Below, one piece after another: positions 3,553-18,805 of a stretch of DNA of 64,000 bases. The stretch comes from a virus (taxonomy: Duplodnaviria; Heunggongvirae; Uroviricota; Caudoviricetes; Straboviridae). The position numbers and the translations under genes are program-made. The number at the start of each line of letters is the position of its first letter. Positions within the stretch are counted from its first letter, which is position 1. The notes under the pieces were generated by a model. It saw only the letters and a program-made list of their open reading frames with translations, was not told where the DNA came from and made no database searches. The stretch lies in IMG/VR virus record IMGVR_UViG_3300011728_000017; one strand, 5' to 3'.

Positions 3553-3612
3553 AAGCCCTTGACTTCGGTCAGGGGCTTTTGCTATCTTACACACAGGAAA
3601 ACAAAACGGTGG
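3553..3612 (+). promoter_or_regulatory. PeSL-like cassette: stem-loop gcccTTGACttcgGTCAGGGGc with -35 TTGACT inside the stem, -10 TATCTT, then the leader box
   Basis: Same architecture as 9645, 18749 and 59945; followed by a small ORF at 3620. Confidence 0.6.
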
Positions 3613-7461: not shown

Positions 7462-8376
7462 ATGAATCTGAATTCTATCGTATCAAACCCAAAGAAAACT
7501 TCCATCATTGCTCTGGCTGTAGTTGCTGCATTGTGGTTGGTGCCAAACGCATATACCATCGTACAAGACGGCACTGTTAAAACACAGACCTTCATGGGTA
7601 AAGTTTCGCCAAACCCTGTGATGCCCGGTTTCCACCTGGTAAACCCGCTGGCTGATTTTGATACGTTCAGCACGAAAGATATTGCAATGAAATTTGATAA
7701 ATTGCAGATTCCATCCCAGGATAAATTTAAATCCACTGTGGATATGACTGTGATGTTGCAGTTCGATGGTAGCAAAGCCCCGATCAACCGTATCAACGCG
7801 GGTAGTCAGGATCAGGCGCTTGATAAGTACGTAACTGAAAAACTGCTTTCAACCGTTCGTGAGTTCGGGAAATCGGTTCCTAAAGCGCAAGATCTGTTTG
7901 ATTCAAAAGTTCAAAGCCAGTTGCAGACTGCGATCCAACAGGAAGTTGAAGATTATGCGCGTCCATACGGGTACACCGTTAAGCAAGTATTCCTGCAAGA
8001 CATTACCCTGCCGGAAGTAATCATGACTCAGGTAACGAATACAAAGATTCGTGAAGAACAGGTTAACGCCGAAAAAGCAGAACTTGCTAAGAAGAGAGAG
8101 ATTGCGCAGCAGCAAGTTGTAACTTCCATCGCGCAGAAAGAATCTCGTGCTAACGATGCACAGGCCAGTGAACGTGATGCTGATGCGCGTCTGTATGCTG
8201 CACAGAAAGAAGCAGAAGCGAACAACGCGCTGCAAAAAACAATCACTCCTGAAATGATTCGCTGGAAAGAACTTGATGTTCAAATGATCCGAGCGCAAAA
8301 ATACCAGGGCGGCGTACCGCAAACCGTAATGGGCGCGGATTACGAAGGCAAAGTGATTTTTGATTCTCGTAAATAA
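7462..8376 (+). CDS. SPFH/band-7 (prohibitin/HflC-like) membrane protein
   Basis: N-terminal TM, then an SPFH-like core (TIVQDG...GFHLVNP...), followed by a long Ala/Glu/Gln-rich coiled coil. Confidence 0.65.
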   Translation: MNLNSIVSNPKKTSIIALAVVAALWLVPNAYTIVQDGTVKTQTFMGKVSPNPVMPGFHLVNPLADFDTFSTKDIAMKFDKLQIPSQDKFKSTVDMTVMLQFDGSKAPINRINAGSQDQALDKYVTEKLLSTVREFGKSVPKAQDLFDSKVQSQLQTAIQQEVEDYARPYGYTVKQVFLQDITLPEVIMTQVTNTKIREEQVNAEKAELAKKREIAQQQVVTSIAQKESRANDAQASERDADARLYAAQKEAEANNALQKTITPEMIRWKELDVQMIRAQKYQGGVPQTVMGADYEGKVIFDSRK

Positions 8377-8532: not shown

Positions 8533-8558
8533 TTCCTTAACACAACGTGGAGTACGTT

Positions 8559-9620
8559 ATGAAGTACAAATTTGATAAAGCTGTCGTGATTGGCAGATTC
8601 CAACCTTTCCATAATGGTCATGCGAAGATGATCAGCGAAGCGCTGAAAGAATCCGAAAAGGTCTATATCCTGATCGGTTCCTCTAATGCATACCCTAATG
8701 TGATTAACCCGCTTACCGCCGCCGAACGTAAAAGAATGATCCTGCGTTGGATTGCGGTTAGCCTTAAATCCCACGAAACCGAACGAATTCAGTTCGCTGA
8801 AATTCCAGATTCGCTGTATAACGACGAAAAATGGAAATCAAATGTTCGCCTGGCGATTGATGAACAGAAAGGGGATCGGGTTGCTATCTATGGATTCTAT
8901 AAAGATAGCGATTCCTACTGGCTTAAAGCTTTCGGATGGGAACACCGCGCAGTATACCCTGTTCTGGGTAAAAAAGGCGGGTGTATCAATGCGACTGATC
9001 TTAGAAAGATTATTTTCGCACATAAAAACGGATGGGATAACGCTATCTCTGATTATGTTCCGCAAACCACTGTAGATTTCATTGATATCTGGATGCGGTC
9101 GGATAACTTCTGGCGTATCGAACATGAATCGCGGAAGTGGGAAAGCGAGTTAGAAAAATTCATGGGATATCCATACCCGGAAGCGTTGAACTGCTGTACG
9201 GCTGACAGTGTTGTGGTCTGTAATAACCATATTTTGCTGATCCGTCGTAAGTATGCCCCTGGTCAGGATGCTCTTGCTCTGCCCGGTGGACACAAAAACG
9301 CTAATGAAACGTTCCTGGACTGTGCGATTCGTGAACTGTTGGAAGAAGTGCGAATTAAAGTACCTGAAAAGGTTATTCGTGGTTCTATCCGCAATTCTAT
9401 GCTGTTCGATCATCCCCGTCGGTCTGCGTACTTCTCAAAACCGACTGTAGCGCAGTATATCAAGCTCGAACCAAACCCGGACGGTAGCCTACCCCGAATC
9501 ATGGGAGGCGCTGACGATGCGGCTGATGCGTTCTGGATGCCACTCCATGATGCTATCCGCAATCAAAACCAGTTCTTTGATGATCATTTCCAGATCATTA
9601 CTGCATTTACTGGTATCTGA
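8559..9620 (+). CDS. natV: Bifunctional nicotinamide-mononucleotide adenylyltransferase / Nudix ADP-ribose pyrophosphatase (NatV-like)
   Basis: N-terminal VIGRFQPFHNGH (HxGH NMNAT motif) and ISW-like region; C-terminal Nudix box GGHKNANETFLDCAIRELLEEV; RBS ggag upstream of ATG 8559. Confidence 0.85.
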   Translation: MKYKFDKAVVIGRFQPFHNGHAKMISEALKESEKVYILIGSSNAYPNVINPLTAAERKRMILRWIAVSLKSHETERIQFAEIPDSLYNDEKWKSNVRLAIDEQKGDRVAIYGFYKDSDSYWLKAFGWEHRAVYPVLGKKGGCINATDLRKIIFAHKNGWDNAISDYVPQTTVDFIDIWMRSDNFWRIEHESRKWESELEKFMGYPYPEALNCCTADSVVVCNNHILLIRRKYAPGQDALALPGGHKNANETFLDCAIRELLEEVRIKVPEKVIRGSIRNSMLFDHPRRSAYFSKPTVAQYIKLEPNPDGSLPRIMGGADDAADAFWMPLHDAIRNQNQFFDDHFQIITAFTGI

Positions 9621-9644: not shown

Positions 9645-9700
9645 AAAGCCCTTGACGAAAGTCAGGGGCTTTTGTTATTTTACCCGCATGGAAACGAACC
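9645..9700 (+). promoter_or_regulatory. PeSL-like cassette (stem-loop aagcccTTGACGaaagtcaggggctt, -10 TTATTT, GGAAACGAACC leader)
   Basis: Same architecture as the other cassettes. Confidence 0.6.
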
Positions 9701-10796: not shown

Positions 10797-11198
10797 ATGA
10801 CTGATATTAGAGATTTAACTGATGTGAAGGCAGGCGATACCCTGTTTGATCCTGGCGAAAGTCGATATAATAACCGCAAACATGGTCAGCCTCGCCTTTT
10901 TCATGTTTTTAAAGTGGCACGTCAATATCTGTATGCTTCCACTGAGAAAGATGTTACAGACATTAAACACTGGTCGGTTGAAAAGGTTGACCGTAAAAGC
11001 GGATTGACTGCCGGATCTGGCGGTGGCTGGGGCGGGTTTTATTTGTATCGCAGTGAAGCGGTACATAGCGAAATTAAATACCGGGCGGAACTATGCGACA
11101 AGATCAGAAAAGAATTCGGTACTAATTCCGTTCGTGTTCCAGAAATTACTACCGACGAACTTCGTGGGATTGCAAAAACATTAGGGGTTGAATTTTGA
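10797..11198 (+). CDS. Hypothetical protein (Gly-rich patch SGGGWGGF)
   Basis: 133-aa ORF with RBS aaggaaa. Confidence 0.5.
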   Translation: MTDIRDLTDVKAGDTLFDPGESRYNNRKHGQPRLFHVFKVARQYLYASTEKDVTDIKHWSVEKVDRKSGLTAGSGGGWGGFYLYRSEAVHSEIKYRAELCDKIRKEFGTNSVRVPEITTDELRGIAKTLGVEF

Positions 11199-12193
11199 AA
11201 ATTGTAATGGAAACGGTATTCGGTTCCCATCTTTATGAACTGAACACACCAACAAGCGACAAGGATTATAAAGGGATCTTTCTCCCACATCCTCGCGATA
11301 TCCTGATGGGTACTGCACCGAAAACCATCGACACGTCAACGGGCAATAAAAACTCTAAAAACACCGTAGACGACGTTGATCGTCAGATGTATAGCCTGAC
11401 TAAGTTCATCAGCCTTGCGTGTGATGGTGACACCGTAGCGCTTGATATGCTTCATGCCGGGGATAACAAGCTACTGGCTAACTCTGAGATCTGGCAGTAT
11501 ATCCGCACTAACCGTAGCCGATTCTACACCACGGAATTAACTGGCCTGTTCGGTTATGTTCGTAAACAAGCCGCGAAATATGGCGTTAAAGGATCCCGAC
11601 TGGCTGCACTGCGCGAAGTGTATGACGTGTTGCAAAAAATCGACGATGCCCGCAAAATGAATCTCCCTCTTAATCTGGGGGAAGCGACTCACCGGGTTAA
11701 AGTTGGCGAAGTGTCGCATAAATTCCCAACTAACGAATTCTGCCGATTCACTCGTGACGAAACGCTGAAATCAGGTTGTCAGGACTTCTATGAAGTGCTG
11801 GGGCGTAAATTCCAATCCACGATCACAGTAGCGGAAATGAAAAAGTCCGTGTACAAGCTCTGGGATGAATACGGCGAACGCGCCCGACAAGCCGAAGCTA
11901 ACAACGGGATCGACTGGAAAGCGTTGTCTCATGCGTTGCGTGGCGGTATTCAGCTAATCCAGATCTATAAGCACGGTGATATCACATATCCTCTGCCGGG
12001 TAGCGCTTTCCTGAAACAGGTTAAAGCTGGTAATGTACCGTTTGCGACTGTACAGGAAGAACTTGAATCCGTTATGGGTGAAGTTGAACGCCTCGCGGCT
12101 GTTTCTAATTACCCGAAAGAAGTGGATCGTAAATTCTGGAATGATTTTATCGAACGTGTTTATTCTGAACACGTAGTGGGATATTACAAATGA
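11195..12193 (+). CDS. Predicted nucleotidyltransferase (minimal NTase / Pol-beta superfamily fold)
   Basis: N-terminal FGSHLYELNTPTSDKDYKG = GS-x(11)-SDxD NTase signature, with later acidic residues (DDVDRQ, DGDTVALD); the start is TTG 11195 or ATG 11207. Confidence 0.55.
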   Translation: MKIVMETVFGSHLYELNTPTSDKDYKGIFLPHPRDILMGTAPKTIDTSTGNKNSKNTVDDVDRQMYSLTKFISLACDGDTVALDMLHAGDNKLLANSEIWQYIRTNRSRFYTTELTGLFGYVRKQAAKYGVKGSRLAALREVYDVLQKIDDARKMNLPLNLGEATHRVKVGEVSHKFPTNEFCRFTRDETLKSGCQDFYEVLGRKFQSTITVAEMKKSVYKLWDEYGERARQAEANNGIDWKALSHALRGGIQLIQIYKHGDITYPLPGSAFLKQVKAGNVPFATVQEELESVMGEVERLAAVSNYPKEVDRKFWNDFIERVYSEHVVGYYK

Positions 12194-12714
12194 ATGATAT
12201 TCAAAAAACAGCGCTTACACTGATCAATGATAACGGCGGGAAATATGATTTCGGTGAACTGATCAATGGTATCAGGGCGCTGGAACATGTTAATTATAAC
12301 AAAGTAGTAGATGAATTACAGAAGTTGTTACAGCTTAAATTTATCACGGTTTATTTCCCGCAACCTTTGCAGTCTGCTAAACAATCTGTTGTTTTAACTG
12401 GTGCGGGTGCTGAACAACATCGCAAAAACATAAAAAGTCAAGAAGTGCGTACAATTGATGATATGGATCGCGCAATCGTTCTTAACCCAGGTTCATCACA
12501 TGAAATTACGTTGAGTGATTACATAGATCATAAAATCAAAGAAGCGCTGAACAATCTTCGTTTATCCGTGGATACCCATTCTAAATCAAATTACGTCGGG
12601 TGTAATGGAGAAGGCGGAATGCATCAGGATTCGACTGTAGTGAAAATCCAGTTGCTCGCTGATATTGCTGATGAAGAATACCTTATCAGCGAAACTGATT
12701 TTGAGATCGGCTAA
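12190..12714 (+). CDS. Hypothetical protein, translationally coupled to the NTase
   Basis: ATGA overlap with the upstream gene. Confidence 0.5.
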   Translation: MNDIQKTALTLINDNGGKYDFGELINGIRALEHVNYNKVVDELQKLLQLKFITVYFPQPLQSAKQSVVLTGAGAEQHRKNIKSQEVRTIDDMDRAIVLNPGSSHEITLSDYIDHKIKEALNNLRLSVDTHSKSNYVGCNGEGGMHQDSTVVKIQLLADIADEEYLISETDFEIG

Positions 12715-12947: not shown

Positions 12948-12972
12948 GCCCCTTCGGGGGCTTTTTATTTGG
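12946..12972 (+). terminator. Terminator aagcccc-ttcg-ggggctt + TTTTATTT
   Basis: UUCG hairpin plus T-tract. Confidence 0.6.
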
Positions 12973-12980
12973 GAGAAAGA

Positions 12981-13892
12981 ATGAGAATTATCGACCTATG
13001 CGCGGGTGTAGGTGGAGTCAGATTAGGGTTTCAACAGGCGTTTGGTGAAATCGAATGTCTTTTAACATCTGAGATTGATAGCCACGCGCAAGAAACATAC
13101 CGCAAAAACTTCGGGCCGGATAATATTCAAGGTGATATTTTCGCTATCAACGAAAATGATGTACCGGATCACGATATCCTGTTAGCCGGGTTCCCTTGTC
13201 AGGCTTTCAGTAAGGCCGGGAAGAAATTAGGTTTCAGCGATCCCCGTGGTACGATCTTCTTTGAGATCATGCGAATTATCCGCGCTAAAAAGCCCTCTGT
13301 GCTGTTTTTTGAAAACGTGCCTGACCTACTTACCCATGACGACGGGAACACGTTCAGGACGATTTACGGGCTTCTGGAGGGGGAAGGGTATGATGTGTAT
13401 TACCAGGTGCTAAACACGAAGGATTTTGGATTGCCCCAGCGAAGGAAGCGAGTCTTTATTGTTGCTTTCAGGGATCCTGTTTTCTTCTCGTTCCCGGTTC
13501 CTCCATGCACCCCAACCAGGGTAGGCGATCTGCTGGAAAGTGATGTAAGTGATTCATTCACTCTTACGGATAAGCTGTGGGCTGGCTTCCAGTACCGCAA
13601 GGAACGAAATAAGGCAAACGGTAAGGGTTTTGGCTATCAGTCCGTTACAGAGGATTCTGCGTATACCGCTACCCTGCCTGCCCAATATTGGAAAGACGGG
13701 GTGCAGTGTCTTGTATTGCAGGAAAGAAAGAACCCCAGAAGATTAACGCCTCGTGAATGTTTTCGTTTGCAGGGATTTCCTGAATCCTTTATTATTCCTG
13801 ATAGTAAAAAACAAGCGTACAAACAAGCCGGGAATTCTGTTTCGGTTCCTGTTATCCGTGCTATTGCTGAACAAATTAAGAAGGTTTTATGA
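12981..13892 (+). CDS. dcm: DNA (cytosine-5)-methyltransferase
   Basis: Motif I IDLCAGVGG, motif IV GFPCQAFS, ENV motif FFENVPDL, C-terminal target-recognition region and QAGNSV; RBS gggag upstream of ATG 12981. Confidence 0.88.
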   Translation: MRIIDLCAGVGGVRLGFQQAFGEIECLLTSEIDSHAQETYRKNFGPDNIQGDIFAINENDVPDHDILLAGFPCQAFSKAGKKLGFSDPRGTIFFEIMRIIRAKKPSVLFFENVPDLLTHDDGNTFRTIYGLLEGEGYDVYYQVLNTKDFGLPQRRKRVFIVAFRDPVFFSFPVPPCTPTRVGDLLESDVSDSFTLTDKLWAGFQYRKERNKANGKGFGYQSVTEDSAYTATLPAQYWKDGVQCLVLQERKNPRRLTPRECFRLQGFPESFIIPDSKKQAYKQAGNSVSVPVIRAIAEQIKKVL

Positions 13893-14149: not shown

Positions 14150-14205
14150 GTGTTTGACCAGTCCGAAAAGTGTGGTATCTTACCCATACCGAAACGGAAC
14201 TGAGG
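14150..14205 (+). promoter_or_regulatory. Early-type promoter (-35 TTGACC, -10 TATCTT) with a CGAAACGGAAC leader box; no GC stem-loop in this copy
   Basis: Shares the -10 and leader motif with the PeSL cassettes. Confidence 0.5.
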
Positions 14206-14526: not shown

Positions 14527-14586
14527 ACGAAAATTTAAATGATTCAATTATCCGCCCCTCTGGGGCATTTTTGCATGGACAAAAAT

Positions 14587-14847
14587 ATGACTTTTACGGT
14601 TGAATATGGTTACGACGAAGGTAATTCACTTAAATGCGCCTCTGAGTATTTGCAGGACTGCATTGATTATGTCAACCAGGATCCATCATTTCCTACGGTT
14701 GCTAAAATCGTGGTCTTCTCTATCTGGGAAAATAAAAAGCGTACCATGGTAGCTAGTTTTGACGGATGGCGGGGCGATGGGCTGGATGGTAACAAAAAGT
14801 TTGAATTCACTGATAAAGAAATTAATAATAGCTGGGGTAAATTTTGA
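14587..14847 (+). CDS. Hypothetical protein, paralog 1 of a tandem pair
   Basis: MTFTVEYGYDEGN...; shares FTVE..D.GN...AS..LQ.CID.VN....FP.VA...F..W.N with the next ORF. Confidence 0.5.
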   Translation: MTFTVEYGYDEGNSLKCASEYLQDCIDYVNQDPSFPTVAKIVVFSIWENKKRTMVASFDGWRGDGLDGNKKFEFTDKEINNSWGKF

Positions 14848-15119
14848 TTTTTACGGTTGAGCGACAGTTTGATTACGATAAAGGGAATATGCTTTTAGCA
14901 AGCAACTCTCTTCAAAAATGCATTGATGTAGTTAACAATTATGAGTTTTTCCCGGATGTTGCTGATGAACTTTGTTTTTCGGTATGGGATAACGATACGT
15001 TAATTAGCACTTCCATTATCAATGGACATCGGCAAGAAGAATATTGGGGCGTTGAACATACTGGCCCTGTAACTTATGATGAAGTAATGAAATATATGGT
15101 GAAAAATGAAAAACTCTGA
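14844..15119 (+). CDS. Hypothetical protein, paralog 2 of a tandem pair
   Basis: IFTVERQFDYDKGN...; the start codon is probably non-ATG (TTG). Confidence 0.45.
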   Translation: MIFTVERQFDYDKGNMLLASNSLQKCIDVVNNYEFFPDVADELCFSVWDNDTLISTSIINGHRQEEYWGVEHTGPVTYDEVMKYMVKNEKL

Positions 15120-15438
15120 TGTGATTATTTGCGCATTAATGCCTAAATATGAATTAGGTGAAGGGCTTCCGTTTACTCAATATCTGGATATCCCGGTTAA
15201 TGTTTATGGTGTTCGTAAGAAACTCGAACATCTTGGACTGAACATGATTGATTTTATGTTAGTCAAAATTAACCAATCGACACCTTATTACGGACTCGCG
15301 GTAGATTTGGAGAATTCTAAATTTGAAACTGCTGATGAAGTAATGCAAGATGTATGCAGCAAATTGAATATTGAATACGACCAATATAAATTAGCAGAAA
15401 TTTTTAACGACGTAATGACAAAAAACCGAATCAAATAA
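15106..15438 (+). CDS. Hypothetical protein
   Basis: 110-aa ORF, coupled. Confidence 0.45.
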   Translation: MKNSDVIICALMPKYELGEGLPFTQYLDIPVNVYGVRKKLEHLGLNMIDFMLVKINQSTPYYGLAVDLENSKFETADEVMQDVCSKLNIEYDQYKLAEIFNDVMTKNRIK

Positions 15439-15453
15439 TTAATAGAGAAAATA

Positions 15454-17658
15454 ATGACTATTTCAAATATCGAATTTAAAAATGCTGTAGCAAAACCTAC
15501 CCCTACCAACCACGTATTTGTATGTGACGTTTCTGGTTCGATGTATAACGAACTTCCGCGTATCCGTACACATCTGAAAAATAATCTGGCTACTCTGGTA
15601 AAACCTAACGATACCGTATCGATCCTGTATTTTGCCAGCAAAGGCCAATATGGTTCTGTATTCGTCGGTGAGAAGATTAAAACGATCTCCGACCTGTCTG
15701 GTATCAATGATGCTATCGACCGCTTCCTGCGTCCTACAGGCTGTACTGGCTTTGTCGAACCGCTTAACCTTGCCGTACAGGTAGCAACCGATCTACAGGC
15801 CGACAATGGCAATCTGAACAGCCTTATTTTCCTGACCGATGGTTATGATAACTGCTGGCGTACCGACGATATTCTCAAAGCATGTTCCGCGCTTCCGCTT
15901 GCGTTTAATAATATTGCTTTCCTGGAATACGGTTATTATGTAAACCGTCCTCTTCTGGAAAAAATGGCAGAAGCAACAAACGCACTGCATAAATTCGTTG
16001 AAGGTTTCGATCAATATGAACCTGCGTTTAACGATATTATTAGCGCACAGACTTCCGCGCGAATTGAAGTAAATGTTGGTGATGCGACTCATGCAATTTA
16101 TATTGATGAAGGTCGTGTTTATGTTGTTAATGCCGCAAATGGTATTGCTCTGATCCCGGAACATATTAAAAACGTTTGGGCTATCGGTGAAAACGCTATT
16201 AACGATGTTGACTCATTTGATCCGGTAAATGACCAACAGGTATTATATGTTGTGCTTTATCATGCGCTGCAAACAATGAATCCTGATCTGGCGTGGAAGG
16301 TTCTGAAAAAAGTGGGCGACGTGCGACTGATTAAGGCGTATGATAACTGCTTTACAAAACAGGATTATTCAAACGCTAAAGATCTGATTTCAAGCTGTGT
16401 TGTTGATCCAGCGCAACGCCTGGTAGACGGTGTTGATTACAATATGGTTCCAGACGAAAACGCATTCACCCTGGTTGATGCTCTTGAACTGCTGGCAGAA
16501 TCTGACACCGAAATCGATCTGAGTTCTCCTCATTGGGCTTACAACCGTACCGGGCGTGTGCGTACCCAGAAAGACGATACCACGCTTGATGAACTGTCTG
16601 CACAGATCGCGAATGCATCGACCGCAGAAGAACGGAAAGAACTGGCGGCTAAAATGGTTGATTACGAAGTGTGGAAACCAGAATTTAACCAGACCACAAC
16701 AAAAGTTTCACTGAAACATTTAGTGGGCAACAGTTCCCGTCCGAATATTTCGATTAATACGGATCTGGCTGGGTATGTTGAAATTCCTGCTGGCTATCGT
16801 CAGAAATTTGGTTTGCCGAAACAAATCGAAACCAAACAGGTGCGAAACTTTACCATTGTCAAAGACGGTATTGTTAACGTGAAACAGTTGCCTCTGGAAA
16901 CTGATATTCAGACGCTTAAAAATCTCCGTGCTTCTGGCCTGACAATTAAGCCTCTGGAAAAAATCGGTGAAGATCGTATGTCGGTTCTGGTTGATTTTAC
17001 CAGTCTTCCGCTGATTAACCGGGCCATGACACGCGGGATCTCTGGTAAAGAGTATGTTACCGACTGTGTTCATCTGGAAGTGCTGAAAGCACGTCAGAAG
17101 GTGCTTAAATTCCTTCGTGATGGTTCTATCGGTCGTGGTAATGCTAAAGGACTCGCGGAACTGTACGGTGAAGATGCTGCTACCTGGTTATCTGAACAGG
17201 GTATTCGTGATTACGGTTTCTCTCCTAAAGTAAGCACCGGGGAATCTACCGATGTTTATATGTCGAAAGAGCTAAACGTAAAAATTAAGGGTGCTAGTTC
17301 TCTTCCGGCTGTTGCGGCAACTGTTAAAAAACGTGACGAAAATAAGAAGAAGCTTAACGCTGCTGACCAGATGATTATTTTTGCTTACGATTCTGTACAA
17401 AAGGAAATTAAAGAGCTTGACAAGGATCAACTCGTCAAGTATCTTGAAGTTGAGACACGAAATGCGATCAACTCCGTTCGTTCTCTTAATAACCGCCTTT
17501 CTCGCGTTATGTATGGTATTGTCGTTGGTCATGCGTGGTTCGCAGATCTCGACTTCGAAGAAACCGAAGTAACTGTACCCGGCAAGGAAGTGAACGAATT
17601 CTTCAAAGATGATTTTGTTTGTTCTATCGTCCTGGAAGAGAAAGAAATTAAAATTTGA
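15454..17658 (+). CDS. von Willebrand factor A (vWA) domain protein, 734 aa
   Basis: N-terminal MIDAS DVSGSM (DxSxS), T/D residues (FLTDGYDN) and Rossmann-like alternation; long C-terminal region of unknown function. Confidence 0.7.
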   Translation: MTISNIEFKNAVAKPTPTNHVFVCDVSGSMYNELPRIRTHLKNNLATLVKPNDTVSILYFASKGQYGSVFVGEKIKTISDLSGINDAIDRFLRPTGCTGFVEPLNLAVQVATDLQADNGNLNSLIFLTDGYDNCWRTDDILKACSALPLAFNNIAFLEYGYYVNRPLLEKMAEATNALHKFVEGFDQYEPAFNDIISAQTSARIEVNVGDATHAIYIDEGRVYVVNAANGIALIPEHIKNVWAIGENAINDVDSFDPVNDQQVLYVVLYHALQTMNPDLAWKVLKKVGDVRLIKAYDNCFTKQDYSNAKDLISSCVVDPAQRLVDGVDYNMVPDENAFTLVDALELLAESDTEIDLSSPHWAYNRTGRVRTQKDDTTLDELSAQIANASTAEERKELAAKMVDYEVWKPEFNQTTTKVSLKHLVGNSSRPNISINTDLAGYVEIPAGYRQKFGLPKQIETKQVRNFTIVKDGIVNVKQLPLETDIQTLKNLRASGLTIKPLEKIGEDRMSVLVDFTSLPLINRAMTRGISGKEYVTDCVHLEVLKARQKVLKFLRDGSIGRGNAKGLAELYGEDAATWLSEQGIRDYGFSPKVSTGESTDVYMSKELNVKIKGASSLPAVAATVKKRDENKKKLNAADQMIIFAYDSVQKEIKELDKDQLVKYLEVETRNAINSVRSLNNRLSRVMYGIVVGHAWFADLDFEETEVTVPGKEVNEFFKDDFVCSIVLEEKEIKI

Positions 17659-17659
17659 T

Positions 17660-17682
17660 AAAGCCCTCCGGGGCTTTTTGGA
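17660..17682 (+). terminator. Hairpin aagccc-tccg-gggctt + TTTT
   Basis: Lies after the vWA stop. Confidence 0.5.
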
Positions 17683-17689
17683 GGAACTT

Positions 17690-18277
17690 ATGGGAAACTC
17701 TGAATACACACTGACAAGCGGCGACATCCTTTATTTCATGGATCGCGAGGGTTATAGAAACTCACGTCCTGAAAATATAGGCGCTCACGCTCAATACCCA
17801 TCATACGTTGTGGTTGGTGCGCGTCACTTCTCCCCTGATGGAGATCACCACTATTCACTGTTGGGCATTAAGCGTCAGGGCGGGGCGATAAGAGAAAGCG
17901 AAGCTAAATTCTTTAACCGTGTTGGCGAACTGCATGATCTGGATTACGACCAGAAAGAAGTAAAGGCAGATCCTTATTACTTCTCCCGGTTGTATGCATC
18001 AGGTGAATTCTGCATTATCCCTGAGTTCCTTAAACGCACATTGATTTCACTGTCTACTTACTTTCCACATGTGGAAAAGAATAAAACCAGAATCGGTGAA
18101 TTGATGGGCAAAGAAACATTAACACCATCAGAAAGTATGGAAGTAAGTCTGTATATGATGCGTAATGCATACCTGGAGTTGCTACAGTCTAATAAAGGCA
18201 ATGTAACCAAAGCGACCGAAGGTATGATGAATATGATGGTTCAGACTTCCCGAAATATGACTAAGAAGGTACTCTAA
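17690..18277 (+). CDS. Hypothetical protein
   Basis: ATG 17690 (MGNSEYTL) with RBS ggagg. Confidence 0.5.
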   Translation: MGNSEYTLTSGDILYFMDREGYRNSRPENIGAHAQYPSYVVVGARHFSPDGDHHYSLLGIKRQGGAIRESEAKFFNRVGELHDLDYDQKEVKADPYYFSRLYASGEFCIIPEFLKRTLISLSTYFPHVEKNKTRIGELMGKETLTPSESMEVSLYMMRNAYLELLQSNKGNVTKATEGMMNMMVQTSRNMTKKVL

Positions 18278-18278
18278 A

Positions 18279-18302
18279 GAATAAGCCCTCTCTACAGGGC
18301 TT
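18279..18302 (+). terminator. Hairpin aagccctctctacagggctt
   Basis: Inverted repeat after the stop. Confidence 0.45.
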
Positions 18303-18748: not shown

Positions 18749-18805
18749 AAGCCCCTTGACGAAAGTCTGGGGCTTTTGCTATATTACACACATGGAAACG
18801 AAATG
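18749..18805 (+). promoter_or_regulatory. PeSL-like cassette (aagccccTTGACGaaagtctggggctt, -10 TATATT, ACACACATGGAAACGAAATG leader)
   Basis: Archetypal copy. Confidence 0.6.

Follow-up and report, generated by a model that had tools for sequence, protein, structure and literature searches.

A conserved phage vWA protein with a predicted ArnB/Sec23-24-type core and a family-specific C-terminal region

Why does a T4-like phage keep a large protein built on a von Willebrand factor A (vWA) domain, and what might that protein do? The question is raised by a 64,000-nucleotide stretch of the virus record IMGVR_UViG_3300011728_000017 (Straboviridae), hereafter the window, whose + strand encodes a 734-amino-acid (aa) protein with a metal ion-dependent adhesion site, or MIDAS, in its N-terminal domain. 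Our preferred reading, to which we assign a probability of roughly one half, is that the protein is soluble, cytoplasmic and not part of the virion, is probably made early, and works on its own as an adaptor that binds proteins in a metal-dependent manner and carries a fused effector domain. The gene and its predicted parts are arranged as follows.

15454..17658, + strand: gene for a 734-aa protein of the vWA family, orthologous to RB43ORF119c, KP15_100 and Maynard_87, phrog_2426 (open reading frame (ORF), PHROG, tblastn and AlphaFold2 (AF2) model)
15454..16053, + strand: vWA domain (Rossmann-like alpha/beta), residues ~1-200
15526..15540, + strand: codons of the MIDAS DxSxS (D25-V-S27-G-S29), with T98 and D129 as further MIDAS residues from alignments
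16054..16188, + strand: beta-sandwich after the vWA domain, residues ~201-245
16189..16413, + strand: four-helix bundle, residues ~246-320, counterpart of the 'regulatory helical bundle' of ArnB
16414..17655, + strand: family-specific alpha/beta domain(s), residues ~321-734, for which no sequence or structure relative was found

The reading frame opens with an ATG and its product begins MTISNIEFKN; because 734 codons and hundreds of full-length homologues far exceed chance, the gene is real as judged by sequence comparison. The hidden Markov model of phrog_2426 ('unknown function') matches it end to end with 1069 bits, pairing residues 1-734 with positions 1-736 of a 736-position profile, and on this evidence the gene is a further member of a catalogued, widespread and uncharacterised phage family. 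Its orthologues RB43 ORF119c and KP15 gp100 (77-80% identity) and the Kuttervirus 'vWFA domain containing protein' Maynard_87 (Ackermannviridae, 48%) are full-length, share its length and two-part architecture and differ from it in nothing substantive; the function of the family is unassigned. Pfam VWA_2 is matched at residues 21-130 (27.7 bits against a cut-off of 27), as it is by 54 of 58 diverse homologues, and Pfam VWA falls just under its cut-off (23.2 against 23.8 bits). The motifs VCDVSGSM and LIFLTDGYDN occupy residues 23-30 and 124-133, and the ~500 aa outside the vWA domain are without any Pfam, NCBIfam or PADLOC model. The first-pass annotation, made from the sequence alone, had described just such an N-terminal vWA domain with a MIDAS followed by some 500 aa of unassignable sequence, and both statements are borne out.

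The MIDAS is complete by sequence (DxSxS...T...D). Its residues D25, S27, S29, T98 and D129 show no variation among 58 aligned sequences, nor in a six-way alignment that includes the ~23%-identical proteins of Rhizobium and Bacillus phages. In vWA domains generally, a MIDAS-bound Mg2+ captures an acidic residue of a protein ligand, and the strict conservation of the site would imply the same mode of capture for the phage protein.

The AF2 model (pLDDT 88 for the whole protein and 92 for the C-terminal model) has the Rossmann-like alpha/beta fold of the vWA superfamily at its N-terminus, and residues 1 to ~320 are predicted to form a vWA domain, a beta-sandwich and a four-helix bundle, the arrangement seen in ArnB, ArnE, 4fx5 and YfbK and in the core of Sec23/Sec24. 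As the N-terminal structure alignments exceed the ~180 residues of a vWA domain, they also cover the beta-sandwich (residues ~201-245). With ArnB of Sulfolobus acidocaldarius (PDB 8s05; paralogue 5a8j) and the Catenulispora protein 4fx5 the core architecture is shared at an identity of only ~15%, and whereas ArnB ends past the helical bundle (~380 aa), the phage protein adds a domain of ~410 residues. ArnB partners the ZnF-FHA protein ArnA under Ser/Thr phosphorylation; no ArnA-like gene lies near the phage gene, and no FHA or ZnF gene was found among its scanned neighbours, so that we regard the phage protein as sharing an architecture with the Arn system without filing it there. The COPII proteins Sec23 and Sec24 (PDB 1m2v, 3eh2, 2nup) have the core in common with the phage protein, but their N-terminal zinc finger and C-terminal gelsolin-like domain are missing from it. 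Ku70 and INTS14 aligned through the vWA domain alone; the likeness to Ku70/Ku80 and INTS13/14, in which a beta-barrel follows the vWA domain, is that of an N-terminal vWA domain in a large nucleic-acid-associated protein, and the phage protein has no Ku70/80-like beta-barrel ring domain.

Beyond the core, residues ~321-734 are laid out as long beta-strands (411-514), long helices (531-581 and 636-691) and terminal strands. No structural relative of this part was found in the PDB, and a profile search of it against PDB sequences gave zero matches at E<=10. Searches of residues 321-734 against Pfam and PHROG at relaxed E-values returned noise only (Fervidolysin prodomain, E 0.13; phrog_4008, E 0.0067), and a Pfam run over all 58 members assigned no C-terminal domain; the domain search that had been proposed as a check on the C-terminal region thus leaves it without a known relative in these collections. 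Against BFVD, the C-terminal model gave significant matches to four models only: one of 751 aa (21% identity), one that bears the name VWFA protein, an uncharacterised one of 245 aa (27%) and one of 361 aa from Bacillus phage SP-15 (14%). We read all four as family members. The two halves are nearly always joined among the best 150 profile matches. The SP-15 protein (A0A127AX08; E 9.7e-12, TM 0.61 target-normalised) could be a form that lacks a vWA domain, or the product of a split gene; it would be the sole sign here of a free-standing C-terminal module. A two-helix hairpin at residues ~377-408 (window 16582-16677) is shared by the homologues from the window, RB43 and Maynard and absent from those of the Alishewanella, Rhizobium and Bacillus phages, which points to a lineage-specific insertion.

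The family is widely spread. The record closest to the window, that of Yersinia phage JC221 (Straboviridae), shares the vWA gene (JC221_061) at 87% identity in nucleotides and 94.7% in protein, and by sequence the window is that of an RB43-type T4-like phage. Using tblastn, we found the protein in 504 phage records, at 76-80% identity in RB43-like and KP15-like phages, 52% in Serratia phage Kevin, ~48% in Ackermannviridae, 35% in Alishewanella phage Slickus01, ~25-26% in the Bacillus jumbo phage BpSp and ~23% in Rhizobium phages (RHph_N34 belongs to the Pootjesviridae). When the C-terminal part alone served as the query, an exhaustive profile search recovered 1,381 representatives of clusters at 50% identity, and 894 of these matched at E<=1e-30. 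Among ~185,000 species genomes (GTDB), a search with a single peptide pattern, and so of limited sensitivity, gave 4 loci only, all apparently phage contigs; as far as tested, the family is apparently restricted to phages. One 178-kb contig (L016, NZ_JBHSCL010000010.1) from an assembly of Flagellimonas marina (Flavobacteriia) encodes a 74%-identical homologue; the contig size and the degree of identity point to contamination of the assembly by the genome of an RB43-like phage of enterobacteria. The remark that T4-type genomes seldom have large vWA proteins is no more than half correct: Escherichia phages account for only 39 of the matched records, those listed being apparently RB43-like or Ackermannviridae, but the gene is present in many records of RB43-like phages (Pseudotevenvirus) and of KP15-like ones (Slopekvirus), and is widespread in Ackermannviridae and other large myoviruses.

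The gene is also under strong constraint. The vWA protein is 77% identical to its RB43 and 80% to its KP15 counterpart, as compared with 85% and 81% for baseplate gp25 and 78% and 79% for the C5-methylase, while the small neighbouring ORFs reach 25% (RB43) and 28% (KP15) for the 195-aa ORF downstream, 30% (KP15) for the 110-aa ORF upstream and 39-52% for others. With a gp25-like identity amid fast-evolving neighbours, the vWA gene forms an island of strong constraint. In the C-terminal part the invariant positions include N431, S433, D471/G472, K549, D600/Y602 and S615/P618.

How might such a protein work? By analogy with other vWA proteins, a MIDAS-bound Mg2+ would clamp a specific protein, of the host or of the phage, by one of its acidic side chains, and the C-terminal domain would then act on or scaffold the captured target, for example in host takeover, nucleotide or DNA metabolism, or counter-defence. 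The fixed fusion to a compact, invariant-rich domain would provide a second activity or binding surface on the same target, and the core-like conservation across phage families and hosts suggests that this target belongs to a conserved cellular or phage process. The capture of host factors, raised in the first-pass annotation, would be a plausible role.

Could the C-terminal part instead be the business end of an enzyme? Under such a scheme it would be a catalytic domain of new fold, whose substrate might for example be nucleotides, DNA or some macromolecule of the host, and the vWA core would target or regulate it. The module is compact and confidently predicted, it is rich in invariant polar residues (with K302, Q303, Y363 and R429 to be added to N431, S433, D471, K549, D600, Y602 and S615), and genes of nucleotide metabolism are plentiful in the neighbourhoods of the family; however, searches of the PDB, BFVD and sequence profiles revealed no likeness in fold or sequence to any enzyme, and the invariant residues may equally be structural or form a binding surface. 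We consider an enzyme unlikely.

In jumbo-phage and metagenomic contigs distant from the window, the family member lies 0.1-5 kb downstream of the gene for the large subunit of ribonucleotide reductase (RNR) (contigs L008, 4053-10274; L010, 5039-10301; L013, 672-10226; L014, 3048-9354). It is usually followed there by a ~93-aa CarbopepD_reg_2-like ORF; some of the large-subunit genes carry inteins, and in L014 and L015 a second, small (235-aa) VWA_2 protein is encoded upstream of the RNR gene. A possible paralogue in contig L012 was set aside when the upstream 763-aa ORF proved unrelated. The association with RNR is not general, since in the window NrdA/NrdB are encoded ~26 kb from the vWA gene and on the opposite strand.

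These arrangements bear on the proposal that the protein is a cofactor of a MoxR-type AAA+ chaperone, in the manner of ViaA/RavA, NorD/NorQ or CbbO/CbbQ, that remodels or metal-loads an enzyme complex, possibly RNR itself. The RNR-adjacent contigs may stem from few related lineages, and the distance to NrdA/NrdB in the window does not favour it. MoxR-associated vWA proteins (ViaA, NorD, CbbO) are unrelated to the phage protein beyond the vWA domain, and no MoxR gene adjoins the phage gene: none is annotated beside it in JC221, KP15, RB43, Maynard, N34, Slickus01 or BpSp, and Pfam models for MoxR/AAA+ matched neither the flanking ORFs nor 10 larger ORFs of the window, the sole P-loop match being PhoH. 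Neither the vWA protein nor the downstream 195-aa protein matched any family of the PADLOC-DB defence models at E<=0.1, a result on which a relationship to known defence systems was also rejected. The partnering with AAA+/MoxR chaperones mentioned in the first-pass annotation thus finds no gene to support it among the neighbours or the larger ORFs scanned, and we hold a MoxR cofactor to be as improbable as the enzyme.

Does the vWA protein act together with the product of the next gene? The intergenic region and the downstream ORF comprise the following.

17660..17677, + strand: intergenic hairpin AAAGCCC-TCCG-GGGCTTT, then a short U-run (-12 kcal/mol, z -1.5)
17690..18277, + strand: lineage-specific neighbour, an ORF of 195 aa (phrog_7309, unknown function); a GGAGG of its own lies at 17680-17684
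18283..18302, + strand: hairpin AAGCCCT-CTCTAC-AGGGCTT downstream of the 195-aa ORF, lacking a U-tract on the + strand (-11.1 kcal/mol)

The downstream ORF, taken at first to be 196 aa, is 195 aa long; its ATG at 17690 stands six bases past the GGAGG, and its length matches that of JC221_060. It has no match in Pfam, NCBIfam, PADLOC or PDB sequences. An obligate functional pair would be in keeping with the gene order, the 195-aa gene lying 3' of the vWA gene in JC221, KP15 and RB43 with gaps of 32-71 nt, and with the occurrence of phrog_7309 in 129 records, all of them RB43/KP15-like. Against this, the partner is missing from ~375 of the 504 vWA-carrying records, and other lineages have unrelated genes in its place: one for an acyl carrier protein (ACP) in Maynard, one for a metallo-beta-lactamase-fold protein in BpSp, and hypotheticals in RHph_N34 and Slickus01. 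An all-against-all comparison of neighbours at six loci found none conserved across them and none common outside Straboviridae. The 28% and 25% identity of the partner to its KP15 and RB43 homologues contrasts with the 80% and 77% of the vWA protein, and a hairpin and a separate ribosome-binding site intervene between the two genes. The supposed coupling is therefore not supported for this RB43/KP15-restricted, fast-evolving ORF, and a required pair strikes us as decidedly improbable; by sequence, the 195-aa ORF appears to be a fast-evolving, lineage-specific gene of a hyperplastic region and not a required subunit.

The two hairpins had been called terminators. A hairpin does follow each gene, but the first has only a 5-U run, which lies partly inside its stem, and the second has none on the + strand. 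A + strand terminator scan called neither, and with a poor or missing U-tract they may be stem-loops or attenuators rather than canonical terminators.

The remaining alternative places the protein in the virion. The vWA protein carries no signal peptide and no membrane segment, its hydropathy over 19 residues reaching 1.19 at most, and each of its segments is acidic (overall pI 5.2). Virions of the Kuttervirus Sajous1 that had been purified on CsCl yielded 1 spectrum for gp185, which we take to be the vWA orthologue because its gene is beside an ACP gene, as Maynard_87 is next to Maynard_88, as compared with 924 for the major capsid protein; thymidylate synthase, dUTPase and a clamp loader were likewise represented by 1 spectrum each. 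The main text on the virion proteome of BpSp (23 proteins) does not mention gp143, the family member of that phage. Although two GenBank records label orthologues 'minor tail protein', nothing that we found supports the label. The first-pass annotation had allowed that the C-terminal region might belong to a known structural protein of the virion, with the vWA domain as a simple adhesion module; neither the PDB nor BFVD yielded a match to a tail, baseplate or capsid protein, and with proteomics also contrary we rejected that candidate. A virion-associated adhesion or minor tail protein, for which the label, the vWA domains of pilus-tip adhesins and the single Sajous1 spectrum might be cited, is very improbable given these results and the position of the gene, which belongs to an early-type block of accessory genes and is encoded on the other strand from the late baseplate genes.

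When is the gene expressed? The sites that bear on its timing are these.

9648..9674, + strand: PeSL-type cassette, a hairpin holding the -35 TTGAC, upstream of the block
14154..14181, + strand: sigma70-type promoter-like site (TTGACC, 16 nt, TG-n-TATCTT; extended -10), the nearest upstream early candidate, a consensus match only
18752..18785, + strand: PeSL-type cassette (TTGACG, 18 nt, TATATT), downstream (hairpin -16.2 kcal/mol, z -3.7)

PeSL-type repeats, in which a GC hairpin with TTGAC is followed by TATNTT, occur on the + strand at 3555, 9648, 18752 and 59948, with 0 expected by chance, and they fit the published definition of the PeSL as an early sigma70 promoter with a GC stem-loop (Arbiol et al., 2010; PMC2839356). 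The vWA gene lies between those at 9648 and 18752, alongside more than 12 other ORFs, and is not a single-gene cassette. The description of the locus as a PeSL-bounded early region is therefore apt in so far as the accessory block contains sigma70- and PeSL-type promoter-like sites, but the bounding is loose, as the nearest + strand cassettes are ~9 kb apart. Taken together, the promoter consensus matches and the repeat family suggest that the gene is expressed early. The T4 late-promoter motif TATAAATA was not found near the vWA gene. In the whole 64 kb it occurs in 2 copies, compared with 4.8 expected from shuffles, and the - strand, where the late baseplate genes lie, has neither; late promoters in this group of phages may follow a consensus other than the T4 one.

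Several points weigh against a non-virion, early adaptor. The invariant polar residues of the C-terminal part could equally mark an enzyme active site. Some true virion proteins of Sajous1 also have low counts, and 1 spectrum is compatible with a low-copy virion protein or an injected one. Consensus promoter matches number 16 in this region, with 15.9 expected in shuffled sequence. Finally, our search of the literature found no functional study of the phrog_2426 vWA family.

If the protein is an adaptor with its own effector domain, what might it be for? A tentative proposal, which we think somewhat unlikely as it stands, is that the family (~1,380 clusters at 50% identity) constitutes an unrecognised class of host-takeover or counter-defence effectors, in which an ArnB/Sec23-24-type MIDAS clamp takes hold of a conserved host protein and a new-fold domain of ~410 residues inactivates, relocalises or modifies it. 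If true, this would explain both the core-level conservation of the gene within a hyperplastic region and its spread over unrelated large virulent myoviruses of Proteobacteria and Firmicutes. The gene has been catalogued since the RB43 genome and has its own PHROG family; what is added here is the ArnB/Sec23-24-type architecture of the N-terminal 320 residues, evidence for a family-specific C-terminal fold of ~410 residues and the constraint on the gene relative to its plastic surroundings. The hosts of carrier phages include Klebsiella, Salmonella, Enterobacter and E. coli, and phages of these kinds are studied as therapeutic candidates. Were the ligand identified, it would probably bring to light some process or defence of the host that such phages need to keep in check, and it would assign a function to the new fold.

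The + strand block that contains the vWA gene converges on the - strand late baseplate genes (homologues of gp25, gp26 and gp51) and also includes the following genes.

457-1830, + strand: PIN-PhoH fusion, accessory gene
7462-8376, + strand: SPFH/Band 7 protein, accessory gene
8547-9620, + strand: nucleotidyltransferase-Nudix fusion (NMNAT-Nudix type), accessory gene
11195-12193, + strand: RlaP-family nucleotidyltransferase, accessory gene
12969-13892, + strand: C-5 cytosine DNA methyltransferase (Pfam, 320 bits)
15106..15438, + strand: 110-aa ORF (phrog_7677) ending 16 nt before the vWA start, probably in the same transcription unit

The methyltransferase ORF is listed from a TTG, and the in-frame ATG at 12981 is the likelier start. 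The 174-aa ORF at 12190-12714 corresponds to two genes of JC221 (JC221_069, 81%; JC221_068, 75%), which would mean a fusion in the window or a split in JC221. Just upstream of that operon which holds the vWA gene, the ORFs at 14539-14847 (102 aa) and 14844-15119 (91 aa) both match phrog_5421 (unknown function), which points to a tandem duplication.

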